Source: a virus
Reading direction: 5' to 3' (one strand)
IMG/VR virus record: IMGVR_UViG_3300044960_000113
Coordinates: 96,001 to 160,000 of that record
Length of the DNA stretch: 64,000 nt
Numbering within the stretch: position 1 is the first letter of the stretch; each line of letters begins with the position of its first letter. Positions 942 to 56,814 of this stretch are shown here, in pieces. A program made the position numbers and the translations under genes. The notes below the pieces were generated by a model that was not told where the DNA came from, did no database searches, and worked only from the letters and a program-made list of their open reading frames with translations.

Positions 942-2249
942 TTAATTATTTATTTTTTTTTTAAAGAATTTTCTAAATACTTCATAAATTTGAGATTCAT
1001 CATCAATATATTCTGCATTAAAATTTTTTGTTGTATGTAATAAATTTTTATATGCATCCCAAAGAGGATGATTTCCTGCTATTATAGAAATGTATCTATT
1101 ATTTCTAATTTCTAGATATGAAAAATGTTGTATTTTTGGTAATAATTTATTTTTGATTATATGGATACATTCAGCATTATCTTCATGTATATTGTCTCCG
1201 TCAGATGTTTGACAAATATAAATATTTGTTTCTGCTGGGTTATATCGTTTTGATATAATATCATCTACTAATTTAAGTGCAGATGATACGATAGTTCCTC
1301 CACTTTCACGTGTTGTAAAAAATGTATGTTCATCAACTTCATGTGCAGTATCAGTATGACATATATAAACAATGTCTGGGTTTTCATATTTTCTATGCAC
1401 AAATACATAAAATAGAGTAAAGAATTTTCTAGAAATTGTTTTTTCTCTTTCACCCATAGAACCGGAATTGTCCATGATAAAAAATATTACAGCCTTTGAT
1501 TTTTTCTTTGGTTTATAATCATTAACACGAAAACGAAGATCTATTGTATCTAAGAAAGGGATAGATTTAATCTTCTTCGTATATCCCGTGATTTTCTTTT
1601 CTAATTCTGATATTTTTTTGAGATCATTTTCATCTAAATTATCTTTAGTTTTTATATCATCAATTTCATCTTGTGCTTTTTTAAGCAATTTTTTCCATTT
1701 ACTTTTCAATGCAATTCTTCTTAATTTAGATTGTGTTATTGATCTAATAATAGATAACCTATTAGGTGGACCAACATTAGTAAATCCAGCATGTGTTGGA
1801 ATTATTTCAACTATCTGTGTTTGTTGTTTATCTTCTATATTTGGTAACTCTAAATCTTCAAAAAAATAATTTAAAAATTCATCACGTGAAACATTAACAA
1901 TAAAATCATCTTCACTATTACCCTGTCCAGCAGAAGGACCATTACCTATTCCATTTTCTTTTCTATCTTTTAAAATATCAAATTCATCGCCACGGATATA
2001 TTTATAATTACCACTTAATATAACAGGTCCATGAAAAATTGATTTATCATATATAAATCTTGGTTCTTCTATCGTATTTTGAGATATAATTACATTATTA
2101 TTACTATCTAAATCACCAACTTTTTTGCCAATTATATCAATTGTTTTTTTATTAATAAATGACTTAATTCTTCTTAAAAATCTCTGTTTATTTCCAGAAG
2201 ATCTTTTTTTAGCAACATTTCGTCTATCAATAATTGTAAATGTTGACAT
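942..2249 (-). CDS. yeaH: YeaH/YhbH (DUF444) family vWA-domain protein
   Basis: N-terminal IIDRR..NKQRFLRR, vWA motif FFIMDNSGSM, ESGGTIVSSAL, YICQTSDGDN. Confidence 0.93.
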   Translation of the reverse strand: MSTFTIIDRRNVAKKRSSGNKQRFLRRIKSFINKKTIDIIGKKVGDLDSNNNVIISQNTIEEPRFIYDKSIFHGPVILSGNYKYIRGDEFDILKDRKENGIGNGPSAGQGNSEDDFIVNVSRDEFLNYFFEDLELPNIEDKQQTQIVEIIPTHAGFTNVGPPNRLSIIRSITQSKLRRIALKSKWKKLLKKAQDEIDDIKTKDNLDENDLKKISELEKKITGYTKKIKSIPFLDTIDLRFRVNDYKPKKKSKAVIFFIMDNSGSMGEREKTISRKFFTLFYVFVHRKYENPDIVYICHTDTAHEVDEHTFFTTRESGGTIVSSALKLVDDIISKRYNPAETNIYICQTSDGDNIHEDNAECIHIIKNKLLPKIQHFSYLEIRNNRYISIIAGNHPLWDAYKNLLHTTKNFNAEYIDDESQIYEVFRKFFKKKINN

Positions 2250-2256
2250 TTATTTC

Positions 2257-4221
2257 CTATGAAGTACTCTTTTTAATACGTTGATACCATTCAACAAGTA
2301 ATTTTATTTGTCTTTTTGTATATCCACGTGTCATCATACGTTTAACAAAATCATCATGTTTCTTTTGGTCTTCAGATGAACTTTTTGGACCAAAACTAAT
2401 AACTGGCATAATATCTTCAGTTGCCGAAAACATCTTTTGCTCAATTACAGTTTTTATTTTTTCAAAACTATTCCATCTTGGGAATTCACCTTTATTATTT
2501 GCTTTATGTCTTAACACAAAATTGACAATTTCATGTCTAAAATCTTTTGGATTTGAAATTTGTGCCGGTTTTTCAATTTTGTTTAATTCATCGTCTAATG
2601 CTTTGCGATCATACATTTCATGTGTTTCTGGGTGTCTAAAATCAGTATCTGATATCCATGCATCTGCATACATAACATATTTTTCAAATATGTTTTGACC
2701 ATAATCAGAATATGATTCTAAAAATGCAACACGTAATTCTTTTTCTAAATATTCTACATATTTTGGTATCAATAAACTTTTTATAAAATCTATATAAGTA
2801 TTTTGTATATCTTTTGGCAAATGTTCTTGTTCAATAGAATTTTCTAACACATAAAATAAATGAACAGGGTTTGCTGCAGTTTCTTCTGGATCCATATCAA
2901 ATGTTTTAGATAAAACCTTAAAAGCAAATCTTGTTGACATACCAGTCATACCTTCATTTACACCTACTTTTTCTTTTGCATCATCTTTGTATTCTTGTAA
3001 AGGTTTTGCTTTTGGATCAGTGTCCTTAATATTTTCACCATCATAAACTCTCATTTTTGACCAAATAGAAGAATTTTCTGGTTCAACAAGTCTAGTAAGA
3101 ACAGAAAATCTTGCTAAAATTTGTAATGTATCTGGTGCACATGGTGCTTTTTCTAATGCAGAATTATGAAGTAATTTTTCATAAATTTTTACTTCTTCAG
3201 TAACACGTAAACAATATGGTACTTTAATTATAAAGACTCTATCTAAAAATGCTTCATTTGTTTTATCATTTCTAAATTTTTGCCATTCTGATTCATTTGA
3301 ATGCGCAAAAATGATACCTTGGAAAGGAAGTCCAGAAATTGCCTCTGTTCCATTATAAGAATGAGATTGAGTTGCTTCTAAAAGTGGATTCAACGTTTTA
3401 ATATCAGCTTTAAACATTTCAGCAAAATTGACAACTCCACGATTACCACGACATAAACCACCAGAATAACTATATGCGTATGGATGATTAGATGGATAAT
3501 CTTCTAATTTTCTAATATCAATTTTTCCAACTAATGCTGAAATATCTTGATTATTTGGATCTCCTGGTTCAATTTTAGAAATACAAATTTGATGATCTTT
3601 GCTTGGATAAATTTTTTCTACTGTGAATTTTGATATATCACCACCGAATTCTTTTAACTTTTCATTTACCCATGGAGATGGACGAGTAATAATTACTCTA
3701 GATGGAATATTATATTCATTTTCTAGAAATTTTTTAGCTTCTTGATTATTAAATAAACTTAAAGGATCATCAAACACAGGCGATAGTTCATCTTCTGCAC
3801 GTAAAACATATACTGGTTGTGTTTCCATTAATTCTTCAATTCTATCAACAAGTGATGATTTACCTCCACCAACAGGTCCTAAGAAATAAAGAATTTGTTT
3901 ACTTTCTTCCAATCCTTGAGCATAATGTTTTAAGAACGATACTAAATTTTCTATGGTTTCTTCCATTCCATAAAAGTCTGAAAATGCAGGATAAATACGG
4001 ATTTTACGATTTAAAAAAATTCTTCCTAATCTTGGATCTTCAGATGTATCTATTATTTTTGGTTCGCCTATTGCTTTTAATAAACGTTCTGCTGGAGATG
4101 AATATACAGATGGATCTGATTTACATAAATTTAAATATTCTTCTAATGATAATATATTATTAGAAAACATATTATCAAATCGTTGTTTTGATATTTTTGT
4201 TAATGAATCAAACAAACTCAT
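2257..4221 (-). CDS. prkA: PrkA/YeaG AAA+ ATPase / serine kinase family
   Basis: Walker A LGPVGGGKSS, FYGMEETIE, YSYSGGLCRGNRG, FAEMFKA, HSNESEW, EAFLDR. Confidence 0.95.
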   Translation of the reverse strand: MSLFDSLTKISKQRFDNMFSNNILSLEEYLNLCKSDPSVYSSPAERLLKAIGEPKIIDTSEDPRLGRIFLNRKIRIYPAFSDFYGMEETIENLVSFLKHYAQGLEESKQILYFLGPVGGGKSSLVDRIEELMETQPVYVLRAEDELSPVFDDPLSLFNNQEAKKFLENEYNIPSRVIITRPSPWVNEKLKEFGGDISKFTVEKIYPSKDHQICISKIEPGDPNNQDISALVGKIDIRKLEDYPSNHPYAYSYSGGLCRGNRGVVNFAEMFKADIKTLNPLLEATQSHSYNGTEAISGLPFQGIIFAHSNESEWQKFRNDKTNEAFLDRVFIIKVPYCLRVTEEVKIYEKLLHNSALEKAPCAPDTLQILARFSVLTRLVEPENSSIWSKMRVYDGENIKDTDPKAKPLQEYKDDAKEKVGVNEGMTGMSTRFAFKVLSKTFDMDPEETAANPVHLFYVLENSIEQEHLPKDIQNTYIDFIKSLLIPKYVEYLEKELRVAFLESYSDYGQNIFEKYVMYADAWISDTDFRHPETHEMYDRKALDDELNKIEKPAQISNPKDFRHEIVNFVLRHKANNKGEFPRWNSFEKIKTVIEQKMFSATEDIMPVISFGPKSSSEDQKKHDDFVKRMMTRGYTKRQIKLLVEWYQRIKKSTS

Positions 4222-9318: not shown

Positions 9319-11460
9319 TTATAAAATATGTTTGGTTTTATTATAATTGTCTTTAATGAATTCAACAAGTTCTTCCAAACGAATAGGTCTAGATACAAGG
9401 TAACCCTGATAATTGTGACATCCTATTTCTTTAAGTTTATCTAACTGTTCATATGTTTCTACTCCTTCAGCAGTAACAGAAATATTCATACGACCAGCTA
9501 AATCTTTTACCATAGTTATAATATTTTGTGACTTATCACTTATTAATATATTATCAACAAAAGATTTATCTATTTTCAAAATATCTATTTTAAATTTTGC
9601 TAGATAGTGTAAACTTGAATAACCTGTTCCAAAATCATCTAAAGCTATTTTTATTCCACTATTTTTAATTTTTTCAATATTATTAGATGCTGAATCAATA
9701 TTATTGATAAGCATTGATTCTGTTATTTCTATACATAGTTTTGTTGGGTCAATGTTTTCTTTTATTATTTTATTTTTTAATTTTGTAACAGTTTCTTCAT
9801 TTAAATCCTTTGCAGAAAAATTCATAGAAAAATATAAATTAGATATATCTACTTTATCTTGAATTAATTTTATATCTCTTATACATCTATCTATAACAAA
9901 ATTTGTTAATTTATGAATCATTCCAGCATCTTCAACAATATGAATAAATAAATTCGGTGTTATAATAGCATTATTTCTTCTATCTTCCCATCTTAATAAG
10001 GCCTCTACACCAACAATTTTATTAGTACTTATTGAAATAATAGGTTGATAAAATAAATGAAGTTCATCATACCCTAGAGCACGTCTAATACCATTTTCTA
10101 TCTTAACTCTATATTCAACTCTAGCATCTATTTCTTCTTTATAAAATTGAAAATTATTTCTACCAGATTCTTTAGCATAATACATTGCTGCATCTGCACA
10201 TTCTAATAATTCATTTATATTTGTTGAATCATCTGGATAAACGCTTATTCCTATAGATGCTGATATATTAATTTTTTTAGTTCCACCATTTAATTCTATA
10301 GGATTTTCTAAACTATTTAGAATTTTAATTGCTATACGCTCTACATATTTAATATCACATATATTATGTATTACTATAACAAACTCATCACCACCTAATC
10401 TAATAATAAGATCATTTTCTCTTACTGTTGATTTTAATATTTTAGCTACATTTTTTAATAAAATATCTCCAGTTGAATGACCATATGTATCATTGATTAA
10501 TTTAAATCTATCTAGATCTAAATAAAATAATGCTATTTTTTTATTATTAGATCTAGCTTCAGCAAATAGATCATTTATTTTTACATTTAATAATTCCCTA
10601 TTTCCTAGTCCTGTCAAAACATCATGATGTGCTAAAAAATTTATTTTTTCTTCTTTTATTTTTAATTCTGTTATATCTGAAAATTCACCAATATAACCAA
10701 TTATTTCATTATTATCATCTTTGACTGTTGATATTATAAGATGTTCTGGGTATATTTCACCAGTCTTTTTCTTATTCCATATTTCACCTTTCCACGTACC
10801 AGTATTTAAAATTGAATTCCACATATTTTTATAAAAATCTGGATTATGAATTCCTGATGATAATATATTAGGTTTTTTACCTAAAACTTCATCTATTGAA
10901 TATCCTGTTATATTACTAAACATCTGATTTACAAATGTTATTTTAATATCGTCATCACATATCATTATTCCATGAGAACTATATTTAAGTGCTGCCAATG
11001 CATAATTAATTTGTTTTTCTTGTTTAAATACTTTTTCCGATAAAAGTTTATAATTTGTTATGTTTTTGCCTGTTCCACGGTATCCATTAAAAATACCTAA
11101 ATCATCTATAATTGGAACACCATTTAATTCAAACCAATATGTTCTATTATATTTGTCTTTAAAAGAATATATAAATCCGTGAAACGGTAATCTTTTATTT
11201 ATTTTATCTTTATATTCATTTAACACATTTATATCTTCAAATCCAAAAGATTCTATTTCACATATTTTTTTGCCTAAAAAATCCTCTTTATCAAAACCAG
11301 TAATAAGAAAAAATTTATCAGATAGATAAGTAAAAACAAGATTTTCATCTTGTTCCCAATACCAATCACAAGAAATGTCTAATAATTCTTGATTTTTTAT
11401 ATATAATTTTAGTATTTCATCTTCAACTATTTTTGAAGATGTGCATATTTCTTCTGACAT
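9319..11460 (-). CDS. PAS-PAS-GGDEF-EAL diguanylate cyclase/phosphodiesterase
   Basis: PAS (DWYWEQDENL; PNILSSGIH..GEIWNKKKTG), HDVLTGLGNR, RENDLIIRLGGDEF (RxxD I-site plus GGDEF), VEALLRW, EITES, DDFGTGYSSL, EGVET, QGY. Confidence 0.96.
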   Translation of the reverse strand: MSEEICTSSKIVEDEILKLYIKNQELLDISCDWYWEQDENLVFTYLSDKFFLITGFDKEDFLGKKICEIESFGFEDINVLNEYKDKINKRLPFHGFIYSFKDKYNRTYWFELNGVPIIDDLGIFNGYRGTGKNITNYKLLSEKVFKQEKQINYALAALKYSSHGIMICDDDIKITFVNQMFSNITGYSIDEVLGKKPNILSSGIHNPDFYKNMWNSILNTGTWKGEIWNKKKTGEIYPEHLIISTVKDDNNEIIGYIGEFSDITELKIKEEKINFLAHHDVLTGLGNRELLNVKINDLFAEARSNNKKIALFYLDLDRFKLINDTYGHSTGDILLKNVAKILKSTVRENDLIIRLGGDEFVIVIHNICDIKYVERIAIKILNSLENPIELNGGTKKINISASIGISVYPDDSTNINELLECADAAMYYAKESGRNNFQFYKEEIDARVEYRVKIENGIRRALGYDELHLFYQPIISISTNKIVGVEALLRWEDRRNNAIITPNLFIHIVEDAGMIHKLTNFVIDRCIRDIKLIQDKVDISNLYFSMNFSAKDLNEETVTKLKNKIIKENIDPTKLCIEITESMLINNIDSASNNIEKIKNSGIKIALDDFGTGYSSLHYLAKFKIDILKIDKSFVDNILISDKSQNIITMVKDLAGRMNISVTAEGVETYEQLDKLKEIGCHNYQGYLVSRPIRLEELVEFIKDNYNKTKHIL

Positions 11461-22056: not shown

Positions 22057-22151
22057 TGGTAGTCCCCCACGGTTACGATCCGTGCCGTTCCAGCCAATCT
22101 AGCCGGTCTCGCGAGTTTATAAGACTCGCCCGCTCACCAGAGCTGAGGACT
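22057..22151 (-). tRNA. tRNA-Ile(TAT) with long variable arm, T-loop ATCGTAA
   Basis: AGTCCTC/GGGGACT acceptor, GCGAGT CTTATAA ACTCGC, ~25-nt variable region, CCA. Confidence 0.75.
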
Positions 22152-26781: not shown

Positions 26782-27978
26782 TTATAACATGCAATTTTTT
26801 AATAATATAAATCCATTCCTACCACCGAATCCAAATGAATTTTTGAGAGCATATCTAATCTGTTTTTCTTTAGGTTTATGCATTACGAAATCTAGGTTAG
26901 CGTCTAATGGGTCGTTTAAGTTCATCGTATGTGGGATTAATGAATGTTTCATAGCCATAATAGTATATATTAATTCAACAATGTTTGATGAATGAATACA
27001 ATGTCCTATATGTCCTTTATTACTACTTATTGATACACCTGGAAAATATTTTTCCATTAAACTAGCTTCTATATCATCACCAACTGGAGTAGATGTTGCA
27101 TGTGCATTTATATAATCTATTTGTCCATTAAAATTTTTCAAACATCTTTCTAAAGCAATTCTTGAACTTTTCATTTCTTTATCTGGTGCTGTTAAATTAT
27201 TTCCATCATTTTGAAAACCTAAACCAATAATTTCTGCATAAATTTTAGCATTTCTTTTTTCAGCATGTTCTAATGTTTCTATAATTAAACATGCATGTCC
27301 ATTAGCAATCATAAAACCATCTCTATTTTTATCAAATGGTCTAGATATTTCTTTTTTAGATAATGCACCTAAATTTTCAAACCATGTAATATCTAAATAG
27401 TTACAACCATTACTTGATGTTCCAACTATAGTACATTGAAGATTATTTTCACTCATTATCTTCAAAGCATAATCTATACTATAAAAACCCGTTGAACATG
27501 CAGCAGATAATGTTAAAGACTGACCTGTTAAATTATATCTAGTTTGTATACAATTTGAAATAAAATCTGAACTATAATTTAATGCTATGAAAGGATTTAA
27601 TCGCCCAAAGGTATTATTAATATAATCTAAATAATCTAATGCTATATTTCTTGTAGAAGAACTAAAAACAACTGGAACTTCTTTACCGTGAATATTTATG
27701 TTTGCATCTTTAATAGCATGTTCAACAACACCTAAAGCAATTTTAGAATTATTAGTTAATCTTCTTAACTCTTTTTCAGTATATCCATATTTTGTTAAAT
27801 CTGGAACTATTTGTTTTTCTAAAAAACAGAATTTTGTTTTTATGTTTTTATTTTTTAATGAGTCTATATTAGACGTGGATGTTAAGTTTTGATTATTTGT
27901 AATAATATTATTAAAACATTCACTGGGATCAGATCCTAATGAATCATGGATACCAATACCTGTTATTACAAATCTCAT
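26782..27978 (-). CDS. fabF: Beta-ketoacyl-ACP synthase (FabF/FabB-like)
   Basis: SAACSTG, SRPFDKNRDGF, YINAHATST..GD, KGHIGH, NSFGFGG. Confidence 0.9.
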   Translation of the reverse strand: MRFVITGIGIHDSLGSDPSECFNNIITNNQNLTSTSNIDSLKNKNIKTKFCFLEKQIVPDLTKYGYTEKELRRLTNNSKIALGVVEHAIKDANINIHGKEVPVVFSSSTRNIALDYLDYINNTFGRLNPFIALNYSSDFISNCIQTRYNLTGQSLTLSAACSTGFYSIDYALKIMSENNLQCTIVGTSSNGCNYLDITWFENLGALSKKEISRPFDKNRDGFMIANGHACLIIETLEHAEKRNAKIYAEIIGLGFQNDGNNLTAPDKEMKSSRIALERCLKNFNGQIDYINAHATSTPVGDDIEASLMEKYFPGVSISSNKGHIGHCIHSSNIVELIYTIMAMKHSLIPHTMNLNDPLDANLDFVMHKPKEKQIRYALKNSFGFGGRNGFILLKNCML

Positions 27979-27983
27979 TATTT

Positions 27984-28298
27984 TTAAACAGTTTCTGTCG
28001 TTACATAAGTAGTAATATTATGTTGTGCAGTATAAGTATCAATAGCATTTTGTAAATCATTAATTAATGTTTGATTTTGACTTAAAAATTCATTTCTATA
28101 TGACTCATCAGCCCAAATATAAGTAATAGTTGATGTTACATCATCAATGTGATTAGTTTCAACACCTATAAATTTATCTGGTGGTAATTGATTTAATAAA
28201 GAAATCAAATTATTATGTAAATTTGAAATTGTATCACTATTTATTAAACCTGGATCTGTTGGTGATTGTCTTATGATTGTTCTAGTAACTTTAAACAT
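27984..28298 (-). CDS. Hypothetical protein
   Basis: ORF with GGAG RBS. Confidence 0.55.
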   Translation of the reverse strand: MFKVTRTIIRQSPTDPGLINSDTISNLHNNLISLLNQLPPDKFIGVETNHIDDVTSTITYIWADESYRNEFLSQNQTLINDLQNAIDTYTAQHNITTYVTTETV

Positions 28299-28352
28299 AG
28301 TATTTCTCCTTTAAATAAAATAATGTAATAAAATATTTCTACTGTATATTTA

Positions 28353-28754
28353 TTATTTATAATTAAATGTTGACCATAAATCTTTATCTGTTTGTTTTGG
28401 TAATTCTTTTTTATTTGCTTTTGCTAATATCAATAATGCATTAAATACATCCTTAGGAAATCCATTTCTATTTCCTCTATCATCAATAATTAATTTATTA
28501 AAATATGAATCTAATTCAATACTACCCCACGTAAGTTCAATTTTTTCAAAAATACGAGGATATTTATCCTTAATTAAATCAGCGGCATTAAATACTTCTT
28601 CTAAATCATTAGGTGGTTTTTTAAATAATGTCACTGGTTCAATAGGTGTTTCATCAGATGGAATAATTTCTGGAAATTCAGAAGTTGGTATTACCTCATT
28701 ACCCCAAATAAACTCACCCTTTTTTTCAAATATCATATTATTATAGATCTCCAA
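28353..28754 (-). CDS. Hypothetical protein with a host-derived-looking domain
   Basis: YPRI..WGS..YF..L..DDRG.R.GFP motif I associate with betaproteobacterial hypotheticals. Confidence 0.55.
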   Translation of the reverse strand: MEIYNNMIFEKKGEFIWGNEVIPTSEFPEIIPSDETPIEPVTLFKKPPNDLEEVFNAADLIKDKYPRIFEKIELTWGSIELDSYFNKLIIDDRGNRNGFPKDVFNALLILAKANKKELPKQTDKDLWSTFNYK

Positions 28755-28767
28755 TTATATATTATTA

Positions 28768-28986
28768 TTGATTAACCGATAACCAGGATTCTGTCTAGGA
28801 GTATAATTTATCTATGCCACAACCCGATCTCATAGGATGGAACTTACCTCGATCTATTTGTGTTGCACACTCAATCTTTCGATTTATTAATGGTACAAAC
28901 GACTATTAGTCTCCCATTAGTTCCAAGTGTGTCCTGAGTTTCCTCAACGGGTTTTAAAAACCCACCGCTATACTCTAGTTAATCAA
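28768..28986 (-). ncRNA. rnpB: RNase P RNA, minimised (~219 nt)
   Basis: P1 TTGATTAACT/GGTTAATCAA; P2 GAGTATA/TATACTC; P4 GAGGAAACTCAGGA/AATCCTGGTTA; GTGCAAC; GGTAAGTTCCA; 3' TAGATAAATTATACTC CTAG ACAGAATCCTGGTTATCGG matches the bacterial consensus. Confidence 0.88.
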
Positions 28987-28994
28987 TTCATTTG

Positions 28995-29067
28995 CTCCTC
29001 GGCCTGGGTTCGAACCAGGGACACACGGATTAACAGTCCGTCGCTCTACCAGCTGAGCTACCGAGGA
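28995..29067 (-). tRNA. tRNA-Asn(GTT), no encoded CCA
   Basis: ACGGA CTGTTAA TCCGT, G73 followed by CAA. Confidence 0.92.
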
Positions 29068-29071
29068 TCTT

Positions 29072-29147
29072 TGGTGCTGCCTGTCGGACTTGAACTGACA
29101 ACCTACTGATTACAAATCAGTTGCTCTACCAATTGAGCTAAGGCAGC
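29072..29147 (-). tRNA. tRNA-Thr(TGT)
   Basis: Canonical cloverleaf, CCA. Confidence 0.95.
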
Positions 29148-29184
29148 ATTATATATTTATTAATCTTTATTCTTAACAGAGAAT

Positions 29185-29213
29185 ATTATATCATAGTTTT
29201 ATTAAAAAGTAAA
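29185..29213 (-). promoter_or_regulatory. Sigma70-like early promoter for tRNA-Thr/tRNA-Asn/RNase P RNA
   Basis: TTTACT-17 nt-TATAAT. Confidence 0.7.
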
Positions 29214-29222
29214 TACGTTTTA

Positions 29223-29438
29223 CTATGATAACACTTTAGATTTTGTGTAAATATCTTTGAAATCAAATCTAACTTTTTTATATGCTAAAAGATGTCCGTC
29301 TTCTGAAATTGGTAAATTATTATTTTCCATAAAATCCCATAATTCATTGACAGATGAAGAACTTGGATTTTGTATTAGCAACTCTAAAAATTTTACGTAT
29401 CGCGATACGTCAAAACCCATTTTTAATATTGATAACAT
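29223..29438 (-). pseudogene. Fragment of an rIIB-like gene
   Basis: FLELLIQNPS..VNELWDFM..LPISEDGHLLAYKKVR.DFKDIYT is the conserved rIIB core; only 71 aa. Confidence 0.7.
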
Positions 29439-29591
29439 TTTTTATTAAAGAACCGTGAATTTCTTTTCCTTTGTAAAAAATTTTATCATCTCTAATTATA
29501 TCCTCTAAATATAGGAAAAACAATGAAAATATTATATCATAAAATCAATAAAAAGTGTTAATTATTTTTTATAATATTAATCAATAATATT

Positions 29592-31310
29592 TTATCCACA
29601 TTTACTAGAACCACATTGCATACATTTATGACATCCTTCTTGATATACAACCTTTTCACTTCCACATTCTGTACATTTTGCACCTTCAACTATTTCACCA
29701 TCTTTAATAAATGATGCTAGAAATTTTTTAATCTGGAAAATAAAACTTCCAACATAAACATCTTTAATGCTATCAAGTGTTGCAACAATATTTTTGATTA
29801 ATACTCCATGTCTAAGATTTAAAGAAATCATTCTAGCAATTTTAGAAGCATTATCATTTGATTTAATTTTTTCTAACACTTTATCTATATGCTCTTGTTT
29901 AATATTTTTTCTTTTTGCTAATTCTGTCAATTTATCAATAGCATCTAATGTTATAACATTTTTTTCATGATGATTTGTATGAACAAATAATGCAAATGGT
30001 CTAGTGCGTGTTTCATTCCAAACAACAGTTAGATACCATTTTCTTCCTTCAGCACGTAAAGTTTTCATTGATGCTTCTGCAGTTTCTGGAAGAATTACAT
30101 CATCTAAAATAATTTCCTCATCATAACCATTTTTATCTGTTTCTTTTGAAGATAGTACAGCTGTCATTGTACCTGTTCTGTATGTTGTTACACCTTTAAC
30201 ATATCCAGATTTATAAACATCTAAATAAACATTTTTAAAATCATCAAATGGATATTCATGTGGAACATTGACAGTTTTTGACATAGCACTGTCAACCCAT
30301 CTTGCAAATCCAACTAAATCATTAACATGATCTTCAACAGTCAATCCATTCAATGCAGTAACAGCCCATGGTGCTTTTGGATTCCATTCATTTTTTTCTT
30401 TTAAATATCTAACACCATAATCAGAACACGTAACCTCTTTAGTCAATCCTCTATTTTTATCGATTTTATAAACTATACCATTATGTTTTCCTTTAAGAAT
30501 TTCTTCATCACCTTCTTTTGTGAATTTAAAAATTTTTGTTTCATGCCACTCACCATCGTACCATTTAGGTGTTTCTTCAATCATATCTTCTGGAATAGAT
30601 GGAACAATAACCGTTCTTATATATTCTGGCATAAATATTGGTTCTAATCCACTAGATACAACATTTGCTAATATAGAAGTATTTCCTGTTGGTTGTATCG
30701 ATAATAATGAACTATTCCTAATTCCAACAGTTTTTAATTTTTCCATATATGATTTTGATAGACCTAATGATTGAATAAATGGATTTTCAGAATGTTTTTG
30801 TGGGTCACATAATTTAAACATTCCTTTTTCTTCTGCTAAATCAATAGATGACATATATGCACTTCTAGCTATGGTAGACATAACCTTTTCACGCAATTCA
30901 TGTGATTTATCAGAACCAAATTTTATTTTCAACATAAATAATGATGATGCCCAACCAAGAATACCAATACCAATGCGACGCTTATTTTTCATTGAATATT
31001 CATATTCAGGAAGTGGTGCATTAGATAAAGTATTAACATTATCTAAGAAACGAACAAGATAACCTGTATATTTTGCTATTTTTTTATAATCAAAATCTGT
31101 ACAATCTTCATTAATAAATTGAGTTAAATTTAATGAAGATAAACAACAAATACCACCTGGAGCCAACATTTGTTCACCACAATTATGAACTAAAATTCCA
31201 TTTGCAAAAAAATTATGATTTTTGGTAGTAGTTAAATCAAAAACATCTTGATTTTCAGTTATTTTTATAGATTTAATTTTTAATTTGCGGAGGTTGTTGT
31301 TTGTTTCCAT
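29592..31310 (-). CDS. nrdJ: Split-intein C part (43 aa) plus C-half of class II (NrdJ-like) ribonucleotide reductase
   Basis: KIKSIK..VFDL..HNFFANGILVHN|CGEQ; CCLSSLNL, RRIGIG, SIQPTGNTS, SSGLEP, SAMSKTVN, KGVTTYR, C-terminal Cys cluster. Confidence 0.92.
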   Translation of the reverse strand: METNNNLRKLKIKSIKITENQDVFDLTTTKNHNFFANGILVHNCGEQMLAPGGICCLSSLNLTQFINEDCTDFDYKKIAKYTGYLVRFLDNVNTLSNAPLPEYEYSMKNKRRIGIGILGWASSLFMLKIKFGSDKSHELREKVMSTIARSAYMSSIDLAEEKGMFKLCDPQKHSENPFIQSLGLSKSYMEKLKTVGIRNSSLLSIQPTGNTSILANVVSSGLEPIFMPEYIRTVIVPSIPEDMIEETPKWYDGEWHETKIFKFTKEGDEEILKGKHNGIVYKIDKNRGLTKEVTCSDYGVRYLKEKNEWNPKAPWAVTALNGLTVEDHVNDLVGFARWVDSAMSKTVNVPHEYPFDDFKNVYLDVYKSGYVKGVTTYRTGTMTAVLSSKETDKNGYDEEIILDDVILPETAEASMKTLRAEGRKWYLTVVWNETRTRPFALFVHTNHHEKNVITLDAIDKLTELAKRKNIKQEHIDKVLEKIKSNDNASKIARMISLNLRHGVLIKNIVATLDSIKDVYVGSFIFQIKKFLASFIKDGEIVEGAKCTECGSEKVVYQEGCHKCMQCGSSKCG

Positions 31311-31425
31311 ATAGCTTTTTCCTTTTTGTAACTTTCACAATAATCATTAATGTTGTCAATTATAATAATTGGTATATCTTGTTCTTTTTTTAACATCTAT
31401 GGAAGTTATAAACCTATGTGACATT

Positions 31426-32763
31426 TTAAATACCTATTAAAATATCGTCTGTTGTTAAGTCAGATGCATTAACATACCCACGATTTTCAGTATAGACTTT
31501 ATGATCTGGTGTTAATTTAATGACTGTAGAATCTTCTAATTCTAATTCGATAACATTAGCATTATTACGTGTTTTGTCGACAAAAGTTATATCTTCAAAT
31601 TCTGTATTTTGTGTGTCAATATTCATTGTTAATACTTTGAAGCTTTCACCAGATTTAAACCTTTTGGCCAACTCAAAAAATGATATTTCACCCTTATCTG
31701 TCGTGACTAAAGTATCACCAGTTAAACATGGATTTGTCGAATAAATTGTTTCAGCATAATTTAATGGATTAAAATAATTTGCACGATCTAAAAATAAAAC
31801 ACCTGGCTCTGCGCGATTATATGTTGATTCCATAATTAAATTCCATAGCCAAGTTGCTGATACTGTTTGATACACTATTGTTGGATACCCAGCTGATTCC
31901 CATTGCTTAATGTCACCTTTCCATTCTTTTTTATATTTTGGATGACTTGTGTCTGGGAAACGTAAATTCCATTTATCAATTTCTTCTTTTTCTTTAATTA
32001 AAATTTGTTTATTTTCATCATCATCTGATAATGAATCAATTTGTTTTTGTAATTCTAATGCTTTTATAACCTTTGACATAAATTCATCTGAACAATTTAC
32101 TGACATATTAAATTTTGTCAATCTTCCTGATGATTGTTTTGCTGTAATAAATTCTATAATATCAGGGTGCCAAACATCTAATACTGCCATCATCGCGCCC
32201 TTTCTAATTTTACCTTTCGCTTTTACATGTGTTGATTTTTTACCTGAACCAGAAGTAATAATATCAGATGATTTATCAAATAATTCCATATATTTTACAG
32301 CACCTGGCGTTTCAACGCCAATCCCATAAATAAAAGCACCACGCGGTCTTATCCAACTAAAATTTTCTCCCCATCCACCCTCACTTTTGAGTGTTTGTGC
32401 TTGATCATTTAATGTTTTAATAATATTACTTAATGAGTCTATATCATTATTTGCTCTAGGTGCAACAAAGCAATTAATAAATGTTGTACCTTTCCATTCT
32501 GTCCCAGCATTTGCATAAATTCTACCACCAGCAGTAACTTTAAATTCACTAAGCATATCATAAAATTTTTCGGTCCACTCGATACGCTTTTCTTCAGTTT
32601 CTTCTGCTGATGCTATTGTTTTTGCGACTCTAAAAAGAGTATCATCTATTGTTTTATCATTATAATCTTTGTATGTTGTTTGCCATATTTCTTCTGAAAA
32701 TTGATCTTGAAATTTTGTTGAATATTTTTTTTGAAGTTTTTGTTTAAGTGTATTGAAATCCAT
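31426..32763 (-). CDS. nrdJ: N-half of class II (NrdJ-like) ribonucleotide reductase plus split-intein N part (100 aa)
   Basis: AGGRI, INCFV, GGWGENFS.IRP, RKGAMM, HPDI, FNMSV, EPGVLF, STNP|CLTGDT, block B KLTPDH. Confidence 0.92.
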   Translation of the reverse strand: MDFNTLKQKLQKKYSTKFQDQFSEEIWQTTYKDYNDKTIDDTLFRVAKTIASAEETEEKRIEWTEKFYDMLSEFKVTAGGRIYANAGTEWKGTTFINCFVAPRANNDIDSLSNIIKTLNDQAQTLKSEGGWGENFSWIRPRGAFIYGIGVETPGAVKYMELFDKSSDIITSGSGKKSTHVKAKGKIRKGAMMAVLDVWHPDIIEFITAKQSSGRLTKFNMSVNCSDEFMSKVIKALELQKQIDSLSDDDENKQILIKEKEEIDKWNLRFPDTSHPKYKKEWKGDIKQWESAGYPTIVYQTVSATWLWNLIMESTYNRAEPGVLFLDRANYFNPLNYAETIYSTNPCLTGDTLVTTDKGEISFFELAKRFKSGESFKVLTMNIDTQNTEFEDITFVDKTRNNANVIELELEDSTVIKLTPDHKVYTENRGYVNASDLTTDDILIGI

Positions 32764-32918: not shown

Positions 32919-34160
32919 CTATAAAACCACTGGACACTTCAACGAAGCAGCCAATGTCGTACCGACCACTGGACTTATGACCTCTCTGTGTCTGTTCTCG
33001 ACTGATTCGGCCGAGTTTAATTCTCTTGCACCTCTTTTAATCCAATTGACAAGATCTCTAGAGGCTTCTTGTTCGATGTTCTTAGCAGCATTCAAGTCTC
33101 GATCATGCACTACACCACAGACGGGACATGTCCAACGACGGGCATCAAGCGATTTTTTACCATCATGATGACCACAAGTAGAACAAATTTGACTAGAAGC
33201 AAAGTAGCGATCAACCTTGGCAAATTCCTTGCCATACCAATTTGCTTTGTACTCAATTTTAGATACCAATGAAGACCAACTCGCATCCGCAATGTTCTTG
33301 TTTCGAGTCTTGTTCTTAGACTGCATCATACCTTGGATAGCTAGATCCTCAAGATAGATGTAGTCATAATTCTTGACAAGCCATTTAGAAAACTCATGTT
33401 GTAGGTGTTCTCGCTGATTAGAAATTTTCAAATATATGCGATTGACCTTCAACTGTTGCTGCTTGCGGCGATTGCTACCTTTTTGCTTCCGACTCAAATG
33501 CTGTTGTGCTCTTTTTAGTTTAGATTGGCTTTCTCTAAACCACCTTGGATTTGCTAGTTTGTGACCGTCACTGAGAACAGCCAAATCTTTCAACCCAAGA
33601 TCAATACCTACAGCACGATAGGTATTTGGTAAAGGTTCTGGTTTTGCTTCTTCCACCAGAACGCTTACAAAATACTGGTTTGCTTTGTTTTTCGAAACTG
33701 TTACTGATTTGGGCGCTCCACGGAACTTTCGATCAACAACCATTTTCATTGGTGTCATTTTTGTGAGCTTGATTGTTCCAGCATTTAAATCAAACGCCTT
33801 CATTCCACCCAATGATGCCGCGGGAATTTTGAATGAATCTCGTGATTTACCTTTACGTTTGAACTTCATTCGCCCAAGTTTAACTGCTCGTTTCTTGTTG
33901 AAGAATTGCTTTTTGGTTTCATCAAAGTCCATTCGCTTTTGCTGAAGTGCATAGCTGATGGCTTCGTTCAACCAAGGATATCTGGGATCATCTTTCAAGG
34001 TCTTTTCTGTGACCGTTTGGTTTGGTCCATCTTTAGACCAAGAATTGAAGTTAGCTACCAGTTGATTCCAGACAAAACGAACTGCACCAAAGTTCTGCAA
34101 CAAGAACTGCTCTTGTTCTTTGGTTGGATATAACCGATACTTGTATGCCATAAGAATCAT
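32919..34160 (-). mobile_element. tnpB: TnpB (IS200/IS605 family, no TnpA) RNA-guided nuclease
   Basis: AYKYRLYPT HTH, GIDLG, YLEDL, CSTC/CPVC zinc finger, DRDLNAAKNI; visibly higher GC than flanks. Confidence 0.95.
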
Positions 34161-36174: not shown

Positions 36175-36248
36175 TGGTTGTTCCTGAAGGTAACGCTCCT
36201 TCGTCTCACGATTATCAGTCGTGCGCTCTACTTTTGAGCTAAGGAACA
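36175..36248 (-). tRNA. tRNA-Ile(GAT), T-loop AGCGTTA
   Basis: CACGA CTGATAA TCGTG. Confidence 0.88.
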
Positions 36249-41549: not shown

Positions 41550-41633
41550 TGGTGGGGTATCTAGGTAACGATCCTAGCTGGCCGAAGCATAAGTTTTACA
41601 GACTCCAGTGTCTCCTTAACACTCTAATACCCC
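41550..41633 (-). tRNA. tRNA-Tyr(GTA), T-loop ATCGTTA
   Basis: Loop CTGTAAA, V-arm, CCA. Confidence 0.85.
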
Positions 41634-41644
41634 ATATAATCATT

Positions 41645-41719
41645 TGGTGCCTCGTGAAGGTTACGCTCCTTCTACCCTTCGCTTGTAAGGCGAATGCTCT
41701 ACTATTGAGCTAACGAGGC
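41645..41719 (-). tRNA. tRNA-Val(TAC), T-loop AGCGTAA
   Basis: TTCGC CTTACAA GCGAA. Confidence 0.88.
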
Positions 41720-47028: not shown

Positions 47029-47211
47029 TTAAATATACATATTTTCATCAAAATCATTTAAAATTTGATAAATTTTATCATATACATAATCAATATTATT
47101 ATTGTTAATAATACCTTTATTTATTAAATCATCAACTAAATCTAAAAGATTAAGCTCAAGAAAATTTATTAATGTTTCTGTTGGTTTTTGATGAAAAATT
47201 TCAAATAACAT
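47029..47211 (-). CDS. Hypothetical protein
   Basis: ORF track. Confidence 0.45.
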
Positions 47212-48277
47212 ATTTATTTTCCAATATAGTTAACTGTTTATTAAATACAACTTTAGCTTTTTCTGAATTTGGAACATTCTTAAGAAGCTTTTCATAATTG
47301 ATATTTTTTAAAAGTATAATCGATTGTTCAATATCTATCATAGCATCTCTAAAAGAAGATGTTATAGCGCAGGCAATCATTAAATATTTAAAAGTTAATG
47401 ATTGCCTTAAAGCACCTATATTTTTAAGAATATCAATTTTTTCTTTTGATAAAAGTCTATCAAAAACAATAATAAAATCATGATATTTTTGATAAAGTTC
47501 TATTGTTTCTTTAACAGAAGATGGAAATTTTATAATCGTTTCTAGTTTATTGATATCACAGTTTCTAAAAAGAACAGTACAAAGTGATTCAATAGGTGCA
47601 TCTGTTAACATCGCTTTATCTAGTAATTTTTTATCAGTGTCTAATAATTCAAATCCAAAAAGTCGATTAAGAGCACCACATTGGTCAAGAATTTCAAGTC
47701 CCCAAATCATATCATTTTCAAGAAGTAGTTTTTCTAATTCTTTCCAAACTCTTTCAGGTGTTAGATGATCAAGTTCACCCATTGTCACCATACGTGACAT
47801 TAGAGACATAGTATCAGGATCTACACTGAATCCATAACGAGCAGCAAATCGTGCAACTCTAAGTACACGTAAAGGATCTTCAGCAAATGCTGCTGATACA
47901 TGTCTAAGAATACCATCTTTTAGATCTTTTTGACCACCAAATGGGTCAATAATCTCACCGGTATTAGGACAGATAGCCATAGCATTGATCGTAAGATCAC
48001 GCCTAGATAGGTCTTCTTCAAGTGACACATTTTCAGTTGACCAAGAAAATCCATTATAACCTATCCCATTTTTTCGCTCTCGCCTAGCTAGAGCATATTC
48101 TTCTTTAGTTTCAGGGTGAAGATAAACTGGAAAGTCAGTATCAACACGAGTATAACCTTGGGATTCAAGAGTTAAAATATCTTGTTCAGTAGCACCAACA
48201 ATAACCCAATCGCGATCTTTGGAATCAAAACCTAGAAGTTTATCTCTAACGGCTCCACCAACAGAATAAATTTTCAT
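47201..48277 (-). CDS. cca: CCA-adding tRNA nucleotidyltransferase (class II)
   Basis: [59 protein letters not shown]. Confidence 0.95.
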
Positions 48278-56372: not shown

Positions 56373-56481
56373 CGCCTATGGTATATGGGTTAATATTGAC
56401 ATTATAACACAAAAATAAAGAAAAGTATATAAAATATTTATTTAATATTATTAATTTTTTTAATAAAGATAGTTAAAATAA

Positions 56482-56760
56482 AATGCAAGCTGATTTGATG
56501 ACAAGGACAGCTTGCGAAACCTCGTGGTGATTACGCTGCTAGGCGCATCTCTCCAAAATATTCATCATTTGCTGCATTTATTTTAGTTTTGTCTTCTCAA
56601 TAACGGCTTTAGACATTGCCGAGCGCCTTTTATTAGTACTAATCGTTACCACGTCGAAACCATATACCACCCCATATTAAAATTTTAATCTATTGGTGGA
56701 GTGGGCGGGAATCGAACCCGCGTCCGCAATAACTTTCCCTTATAAAAGGTTTACGCTGTT
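56482..56760 (-). ncRNA. ssrA: Two-piece (circularly permuted) tmRNA
   Basis: Acceptor piece ..GACGCGGGTTCGATTCCCGCCCACTCCACCA (ends 56694) precedes coding piece GGGGTGG..TTCGAC (starts 56673); G3-U70; tag ANDEYFGEMRLAA* at 56531-56572. Outer ends approximate. Confidence 0.93.
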
Positions 56761-56814
56761 TTACTACATTTACACAAACGCCAATTTGTGTTCTTTATTT
56801 GTTATATTTATATT

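Follow-up and report, generated by a model that had tools for sequence, protein, structure and literature searches.

A strongly reduced RNase P RNA homologue in the tRNA operon of a large phage

Ribonuclease P (RNase P) RNA has hitherto been regarded as a gene of cells and organelles. Whether a phage may carry one as well, and in a much smaller form, is a question raised by a stretch of 64,000 nucleotides (nt) from the IMG/VR virus record IMGVR_UViG_3300044960_000113 (positions 96,001 to 160,000 of the record; this whole stretch is called the window, and its own numbering is used below). An earlier note on this DNA, made from the letters alone, had proposed a strongly minimised RNase P RNA inside a tRNA operon. 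We find a 219-nt RNase P RNA homologue at 28768-28986 on the minus strand, reaching from the 5′ strand to the 3′ strand of helix P1. The length given in the note is correct, and the motifs it named lie on the minus strand where it had placed them, in the order of bacterial RNase P RNAs.

The Rfam model of bacterial class A RNase P RNA (RF00010) matched 28764-28986 over model positions 1-367 with 64.3 bits and an E-value of 2.6e-19 in a search of 601 nt, and the same RNA is the single RF00010 match in the whole 184-kb record (E 1.9e-20). The covariance-model check that the note had called for gave support from end to end, though below the 100-bit cut-off, and the full-span match with deleted positions in the specificity domain (S-domain) bears out a strongly minimised RNase P RNA. 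The match is visible only in E-value mode; at the Rfam gathering thresholds, a scan of the whole window returned 26 tRNA matches and a permuted transfer-messenger RNA (tmRNA), and no RNase P. The gathering score of the archaeal model RF00373 (84 bits) was not reached either, and RF00010 is the best match for the window RNA within the clan. A covariance model of the phage family described below (model R1), derived from 36 phage copies other than the window sequence, recognizes the RNA over its full length (model positions 1-195, 108.1 bits, E 1.6e-28) and has no other match in the window. The RNA has 38% G+C, compared to 27-28% in its surroundings. Based on sequence and predicted structure, we conclude that 28768-28986 is a real RNase P RNA homologue in a strongly reduced form.

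All helices of the window RNA were checked base by base. Its elements, including the conserved regions (CR), are as follows:

28978-28986 with 28768-28776, minus strand: P1, 9 bp, 5′ strand UUGAUUAAC with GUUAAUCAA
28969-28975 with 28799-28805, minus strand: P2, 7 bp, 5′ strand GAGUAUA with UAUACUC
28946-28966, minus strand: P3 hairpin, 9 bp including three G-U pairs, 3-nt loop
28933-28945, minus strand: CR-I and 5′ strand of P4, GAGGAAACUCAGG, bulged U present
28780-28794, minus strand: CR-V and 3′ strand of P4, ACAGAAUCCUGGUUA (RF00010 alignment and base-by-base check)
28925-28931 with 28866-28872, minus strand: P5 (with a P7-like extension), 7 bp, CACACUU with GAGUGUG
28919-28924 with 28839-28844, minus strand: P6 pseudoknot, 6 bp, GGAACU with AGUUCC in the P17 loop
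28889-28918, minus strand: reduced specificity module, with 5-bp stem AAUGG/CCAUU, loop strand GAGA, 4-bp hairpin and loop strand GUUUGUA
28873-28884, minus strand: extra 4-bp hairpin with GAAA tetraloop (base-by-base check)
28818-28865, minus strand: J5/15 (CAA), P15 (CAC/GUG), P16 (GAUC/GAUC), P17 (AGG/CCU) and 3′ strand of L15 (RF00010 alignment and base-by-base check)
28806-28813, minus strand: CR-IV, AGAUAAAU (J15/2, equivalent to J18/2), with P18 absent just upstream

The universal core is present in full, namely CR-I, CR-IV, CR-V and P4, the latter with 7 bp and the bulged U kept (28933-28945 with 28780-28794). Helices P15, P16 and P17 have 3, 4 and 3 bp, respectively, and the L15 strand reads CGGGUU with the GGU motif at 28822-28824. 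Neither a full specificity domain (P7-P14 with CR-II and CR-III) nor P18 is found: P8/P9, P13/P14 and P18 are absent, a module of 54 nt, consisting of a short stem, a conserved internal loop, a hairpin and the extra GAAA hairpin, replaces about 140 specificity-domain positions of RF00010, and at the P18 site the alignment sets 24 model positions against 0 nt.

The anatomy drawn in the earlier note agrees with this in part. P1, P2 and both P4 strands were read correctly (9, 7 and 7 bp), and P13/P14 and P18 are indeed absent. On the other hand, P15, P16, P17 and the L15 GGU, thought to be missing along with P18, are present, P6 is kept as well, and P8/P9 are lost in addition. Two motifs had been misassigned. 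GUGCAAC, taken as an S-domain element, represents the 3′ strand of P5 followed by J5/15, and GGUAAGUUCCA is the P17 loop with the 3′ strand of P6 (AGUUCC, pairing with GGAACU at 28919-28924). No alignment of the S-module to a known S-domain was obtained, as the region is skipped by both RF00010 and RF00373, and its homology to P10/11-P12 is an argument from position. Its loop strands may resemble the E. coli series P11 - J11/12 - P12 ... GUAAACUC - P11 in position and composition.

Relatives of the RNA were searched with a pattern of the two P4 strands at reduced spacing, in which two variable P4 positions were left free. This free pattern identified 17 true and distinct relatives, located on IMG/VR contigs with lengths of 15-416 kb, and a family-specific pattern added 34 matches in metagenome contigs. 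Including the window copy, the family amounts to 45 distinct sequences, 37 of which are below ~93% identity; its members were found in viral or metagenome contigs. When applied to 185,579 species genomes, the free pattern matched 21 times; a single match is a true member, located on a 3-kb contig that has six tRNAs and was binned into a Nitrosotalea metagenome-assembled genome. The remaining 20 matches are due to chance: they have none of the other RNase P motifs and, judged by eye, apparently lie mostly inside coding sequence. The pattern matches L007 and L011 were discarded, since they are without all other RNase P features. Two swapped base pairs in P4 (AAC-U-CAGG with CCUGGUU) occur in 15 of the 17 free-pattern copies, and the window RNA bears the marks of the family, i.e., the AAUGG-GAGA-hairpin-GUUUGUA-CCAUU module and a same-strand tRNA array with a tRNA-Asn 8 nt upstream. 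A comparably long insertion at the site of the GAAA hairpin is found only in L016 among 37 aligned copies; L006, L035 and L059 have 2-4 extra nt. Against RF00373, relatives score 61.3 bits (L002) and 32.1 bits (L004).

Conservation was assessed in a 37-sequence alignment, for which RNAalifold predicts P4, P5, the S-module stem, P15, P16 and P17 with 27 pairs in total. In 19 of these, changes are seen on both sides. Standard pairs make up 96.5% of the cells, compared to 77.7% in shuffled alignments and 29-43% when the columns are slid by 1-3 positions. Cells changed on both sides number 185 (44.7 shuffled, 22-42 slid), the covariation score is 0.534 (0.163 shuffled, 0.058-0.089 slid), and not one of 500 shuffles reaches any of the observed values. 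By helix, both-side changes are found in three of the four family pairs of P5, four of five pairs covary in the S-module stem, and in P15, P16 and P17 every pair does. The P6 pseudoknot covaries too, with CUGCUU/GAGCAG, CAGCUU/GAGCUG, UCGCUU/GAGCGA, CCGCUU/AAGCGG, UUGUUU/GAACAA and AGAAGAAA/UUUCUUCU in relatives. For P1, cognate flanks of the 37 relatives pair more strongly than non-cognate ones (mean −16.0 versus −9.2 kcal/mol, p 3e-14), and the same holds for P2 (p 8e-6).

The single-stranded parts are conserved as well. The internal-loop strands of the S-module read G-R-A-G-R and Y-U-N-N-N-A-C in the 37 relatives, L15 keeps GG followed by U in all 37, and CR-IV, CR-V and J2/4 are strictly conserved in the family. 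The helices of the catalytic domain (C-domain), P1-P5 and P15-P17, are found together with P6 and supported by covariation. We conclude that selection has preserved both the entire catalytic domain and the CCA-binding loop, with the elbow reader cut down to one conserved internal loop. A total loss of tRNA elbow reading is not supported, since the place usually taken by the T-loop reader is still occupied in the family by a conserved internal-loop module.

P3 is variable in length across the family; at the extremes, it is a stem of 3 bp or encloses an HNH endonuclease open reading frame (ORF). In L004 (10961-11900, minus strand), a 188-codon ORF with an HNH-type motif, recognized by eye, lies in the RNase P RNA gene, within the loop of P3. 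The 5′ strands of P1, P2 and P3 are located about 740 nt upstream, the insertion is closed by a 9-bp stem (UGUUCAACA with UGUUGAACA), and the frame with the HNH motif continues through CR-I and has its stop in GCUUAA. In L020, the L004-type P3 stem persists and surrounds a ~40-nt remnant, and the P3 of L005 and L071 contains ~130 inserted nt. Due to large P3 insertions, the automatic finding of P1 failed for L004, L005 and L020.

Which genomes carry the reduced RNA? The source record (184,280 bases, about 52% complete according to CheckV) was assigned to the viruses by IMG/VR and has matches in PHROG. Of the viral hallmarks looked for, Gp23 capsid and Terminase_6C were not found in this record, which represents about half a genome, and Terminase_6N gave a partial match only. 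The carriers compare as follows:

Own record: 184 kb, ~52% complete; reduced RNA present; Terminase_6N 15.8-bit partial match only; no RnpA
Relative with locus L008: 329 kb, complete with direct terminal repeats (DTR); reduced RNA present; Terminase_6N not found; no RnpA
Relative with locus L016: 293 kb, 91% complete; reduced RNA present; Terminase_6N present; no RnpA
Relative with locus L014: 171 kb, 70% complete; reduced RNA present; Terminase_6N present; no RnpA
Phage DLP6 (KU682439.2): 168 kb, cultured, complete; reduced RNA present; no RnpA

RnpA (PF00825), the protein partner of the bacterial ribozyme, was found neither in the own record nor in five related records nor in DLP6. The five include the 416-kb record with L002 and the 169-kb record with L005, where RF00010 gives no match at E 0.001 or better and the copies were found by the pattern scan. 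No RNase P match of at least 100 bits was detected in any of these records; the relatives have the reduced RNA only.

The copy in the cultured Stenotrophomonas phage vB_SmaS-DLP_6 (DLP6) is 249 nt long (KU682439.2, 105774-106022; L079:1501-1749) and is matched by RF00010 with 54.7 bits (E 3.3e-17) and by model R1 with 56.1 bits at the same site. It occupies an unannotated gap directly before a tRNA-Arg, has a further compensated variant of P4, and shows two extra hairpins at the P18 site. A blastn search with the window RNA, L017 and the DLP6 RNA against 50,697 GenBank phage records gave no relatives; the miss of the DLP6 copy is a false negative, as RF00010 detects that copy. In the published huge phage LR756502.1 (642 kb), which shares one neighboring gene with the window, RF00010 has no match at E ≤0.01. 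In the 416-kb relative, a group I intron match (L002:426-1037, minus strand, 91 bits, Rfam) overlaps the end of a tmRNA match (80 bits).

In 37 of the 45 family members, the RNase P RNA is adjoined by a tRNA on the same strand, and all 390 tRNAs in the family loci share its strand. A tRNA starts at most 100 nt after GGUUA in 28 members, mostly after 15-24 nt and right behind the 3′ strand of P1, so that RNase P cleavage at the tRNA 5′ end would create the 3′ end of the ribozyme. The window copy represents another arrangement, with tRNAs upstream and an ORF downstream. A 3′ CCA is encoded by 30 of the 32 window tRNAs, and the L15 of the window RNA reads CGGGU, as in CCA-encoding bacteria. Across the family loci L002-L076, loci with CGGGU in L15 encode CCA in 63 of 95 tRNAs, compared to 9 of 171 in loci with RAGGU, in a count that is uncorrected for relatedness and for which L044 and L046 were assigned by hand. 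Although it ignores relatedness, this comparison is suggestive of co-adaptation between L15 and the CCA ends of the tRNAs.

The earlier note had also supposed that the ribozyme serves tRNAs with altered T-loops. Among the 32 window tRNAs, two have a T-loop reading UGCAA, and four others show an exchange of positions 54 and 58, i.e., A54/U58 in place of the usual U54-A58 pair, namely:

41645-41719, minus strand: tRNA-Val(UAC), T-loop AGCGUAA, A54 and U58
41550-41633, minus strand: tRNA-Tyr(GUA), T-loop AUCGUUA, A54 and U58
36175-36248, minus strand: tRNA-Ile(GAU), T-loop AGCGUUA, A54 and U58
22057-22151, minus strand: tRNA-Ile(UAU), T-loop AUCGUAA, A54 and U58

As only these four are clearly aberrant and 30 of 32 tRNAs have a normal encoded CCA, there is little support for such a purpose. 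Several window tRNAs are unusually long (88-96 nt).

The region of the source record has 24-32% G+C, and all 32 tRNA genes and the tmRNA of the window are on the minus strand. Next to the RNase P RNA are located:

28994-29147, minus strand: tRNA-Thr(UGU) with encoded CCA, a 4-nt spacer, and tRNA-Asn(GUU) without CCA; the RNase P RNA starts 8 nt after tRNA-Asn
29185-29213, minus strand: promoter-like TTTACT-17-TATAAT with upstream TG, matching the consensus, about 35 nt before tRNA-Thr

The placement in a tRNA operon is accordingly upheld, given the shared strand, the distance of 8 nt behind the tRNA-Thr/tRNA-Asn pair, the promoter-like site upstream and the lack of any terminator-like site in 27900-29700. 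Promoter-like sites are weak evidence, as 15 were found where 13.8 were expected, which is no more than in shuffled sequence. Directly downstream follows an ORF with the ribosome-binding site GGAG and an ATG at 28736, for which no Pfam or PHROG match was found. The public sequencing runs containing this DNA are hot-spring and microbial-mat metagenomes, possibly its source.

Several other genes of the window were noticed, all on the minus strand. A tRNA nucleotidyltransferase of the CCA-adding type (47201-48277; PF01743 and PF12627, phrog_2244) is encoded in addition to a tRNA complement of which 30 of 32 members already encode CCA. The permuted tmRNA gene consists of two pieces (56440-56786; RF04321, 92.7 bits), with the tag peptide AANDEYFGEMRLAA according to ARAGORN. 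A ribonucleotide-reductase-like gene (29592-32763, translations read by eye) is represented by two ORFs 115 nt apart, the first ending in an intein-like N-terminal motif (CLTGDTLV...) and the second starting with one that resembles the C-terminal motif of inteins (...ILVHNC); the arrangement may represent an intein, perhaps a split or disrupted one. A 413-aa ORF (32919-34160) resembles TnpB (OrfB) of the IS200/IS605 type and has a C-terminal CxxC...CxxC zinc ribbon, both seen by eye. Host-like signaling genes within 942-4221 and 9319-11460 encode a PrkA kinase (PF08298 and PF06798) and a PAS-GGDEF-EAL protein, and the ORF adjoining the PrkA kinase gene has a match in a PHROG family whose annotation is sporulation protein.

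What would such an RNA do? RNase P acts as a ruler: it pairs with the tRNA 3′ end through L15 and stacks two interdigitated T-loops of the S-domain on the tRNA elbow (PMC4919913). The C-domain alone cleaves pre-tRNA with or without RnpA, albeit less well (PMC4919922), and the separation of polycistronic tRNA transcripts requires RNase P (PMC7049720). The sequences probably represent a working, streamlined RNase P RNA of a large phage, which would mature phage pre-tRNAs together with host RnpA. The RNA would be transcribed together with tRNA-Thr and tRNA-Asn, be released by the ordinary enzymes of tRNA end processing, and bind the RnpA protein of the host, which is invoked because the carrier phages encode none. 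It would then cleave the 5′ leaders and spacers of the polycistronic phage pre-tRNAs and probably the pre-tmRNA too, anchoring its substrates mainly via CCA-GGU pairing and reading the tRNA elbow, if at all, in a simplified manner. The benefit may lie in an RNase P capacity controlled by the phage while at least 30 tRNA genes are expressed at once.

Several points weigh against this explanation. The score of 64.3 bits stays short of the RF00010 gathering score of 100 bits, because about 140 specificity-domain positions (54 nt present) and 24 P18 positions (0 nt present) are skipped. The single-sequence fold of the window RNA is not more stable than that of shuffled sequences (z = −1.39), which is uninformative. 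No RNA run is among the public sequencing runs containing this DNA. The relation between L15 and encoded CCA, itself uncorrected for relatedness, has exceptions, with CCA encoded by 0 of 13 tRNAs in L073, 1 of 8 in L008 and 1 of 6 in L035. The use of host RnpA is purely our inference, and a gene like rnpA could be situated in the missing half of the own record, which is only ~52% complete. Finally, hosts such as Stenotrophomonas should have an RNase P of their own, so that necessity does not account for the selective benefit.

Alternatively, the RNA might be independent of host RnpA, working protein-free in vivo or with an unrecognized phage protein, which would make it an autonomous phage RNase P. 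This is suggested by the absence of an RnpA gene from every searched carrier, complete genomes included, and by the variation of P3 from 3 bp to an ORF-enclosing stem, which seems loose for a region contacting a protein; moreover, a C-domain cleaves protein-free in vitro (PMC4919922). We nevertheless consider it unlikely, as CR-IV, CR-V and J2/4 are strictly conserved and the neighbors of the RNA are tRNAs, with no conserved protein gene adjoining it. Those three conserved elements form the binding site of bacterial RnpA in the T. maritima holoenzyme structure, and protein-free activity of bacterial RNase P RNAs needs unphysiological salt. The retention of the presumed RnpA-binding elements, with most of the substrate-reading half lost, would fit a non-catalytic decoy, which soaks up host RnpA or pre-tRNAs and thereby disturbs host tRNA maturation or regulates the phage tRNA supply, the more so as the host already has its own RNase P. 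However, the bulged U of P4, the adenines of CR-I and J5/15, the L15 GGU and P6 are conserved in at least 37 divergent copies, and these nucleotides serve chemistry and substrate docking, not protein binding. Further, the L15 sequence tracks the encoded CCA of the phage tRNAs. A decoy is, thus, improbable in our view, even more so than an autonomous enzyme.

Two explanations deny a phage function altogether, and both can be given hardly any credence. A mis-binned, AT-rich reduced cellular or organellar genome could have a shrunken RNase P RNA, as known from organelles, and the host-like genes of the window (PrkA kinase, PAS-GGDEF-EAL protein and a KAS-like ORF seen by eye), its tmRNA, and the failure to find a terminase or T4-type capsid family in the 184-kb record might be read in that way. 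Nevertheless, the record is viral by IMG/VR class and PHROG matches, and the same RNA family occurs in a DTR-complete viral genome of 329 kb, in terminase-bearing records and in the cultured phage DLP6. Among 185,579 species genomes, its single true member lies on a 3-kb contig with six tRNAs. The Rfam scan of the window contained no rRNA family; ribosomal-protein genes were not looked for. The heavy truncation and a score below the Rfam threshold could alternatively indicate a decaying relic of a captured host rnpB without present function. This is contradicted by the covariation data: 45 distinct copies share one architecture, compensatory changes are found in every helix tested, and the universal core motifs are all intact.

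Starting again from a working phage RNase P RNA, a more far-reaching possibility, which we regard as rather doubtful, is that the hybrid holoenzyme with host RnpA has a changed specificity. Anchored by the pairing of CCA with L15 and equipped with no more than a rudimentary elbow reader, it would favor tightly packed phage tRNA arrays, including odd tRNAs and its own 3′ end, and would draw RnpA away from the host ribozyme. If true, the RNA would serve host takeover by way of an RNA-processing enzyme, and a minimal bacterial-type RNase P of natural origin would be at hand as a model system.

How does the phage RNA relate to known RNase P RNAs? With bacterial type A (RF00010; M1 RNA/rnpB of E. 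coli, P RNA of T. maritima), it has in common the order of P1-P5, P15-P17 and P6, CR-I, CR-IV and CR-V, the bulged U of P4 and the L15 GGU for CCA pairing. It differs in having only 219 nt, without P8/P9, P13/P14 and P18 and with ~140 S-domain positions reduced to 54 nt, in its two swapped P4 base pairs, in being a viral gene, and in that searches of carrier records, of which the own one is about half complete, revealed no rnpA. Typical bacterial RNase P RNAs have 340-420 nt (PMC4919922). Archaeal type A RNAs are without P13/P14 and P18 and keep P15-P17 and P6 (PMC4919922). The phage RNA shows the same losses, and some family members even score best with the archaeal model RF00373 (L002, 61.3 bits). 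However, P7-P12 with P8/P9 are retained in archaeal RNAs, which depend on four or five proteins, whereas the phage RNA remains below the 84-bit cut-off and has its S-region skipped by RF00373. The same minimal plan is found in type P/T of Pyrobaculum, an RNA of ~200 nt in which the catalytic domain is kept and nearly the whole specificity domain is lost (Lai et al. 2010, cited in PMC4919922). In contrast to this cellular RNA of archaeal descent, the phage RNA is bacterial-like, with the L15 GGU, P6 and the conserved module of stem, internal loop and hairpin.

Genes supporting translation are known from huge phages as tRNA arrays, tmRNA and CCA-adding enzymes. The RNA shares their neighborhood and apparent logic, as the window has 32 tRNAs, a permuted tmRNA and a tRNA nucleotidyltransferase, but a ribozyme subunit of the tRNA-processing machinery is absent from the reviews and literature searched. 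In open-access papers and bioRxiv, including two RNase P reviews, no report of a phage-encoded RNase P RNA was found. Within the literature searched, the RNA would be the first viral RNase P RNA, and one of a new structural form.

A conserved viral form would add a ribozyme to the translation-support genes of large phages, and its position beside the tRNAs suggests that this ribozyme helps to cut itself from the transcript. With DLP6 (host Stenotrophomonas maltophilia D1571), a cultured carrier exists which makes the question directly testable at the bench. The family as a whole offers dozens of natural, evolution-tested RNase P RNAs of ~190-260 nt and reveals what the enzyme can do without if its substrates come from the phage's own tRNA array.

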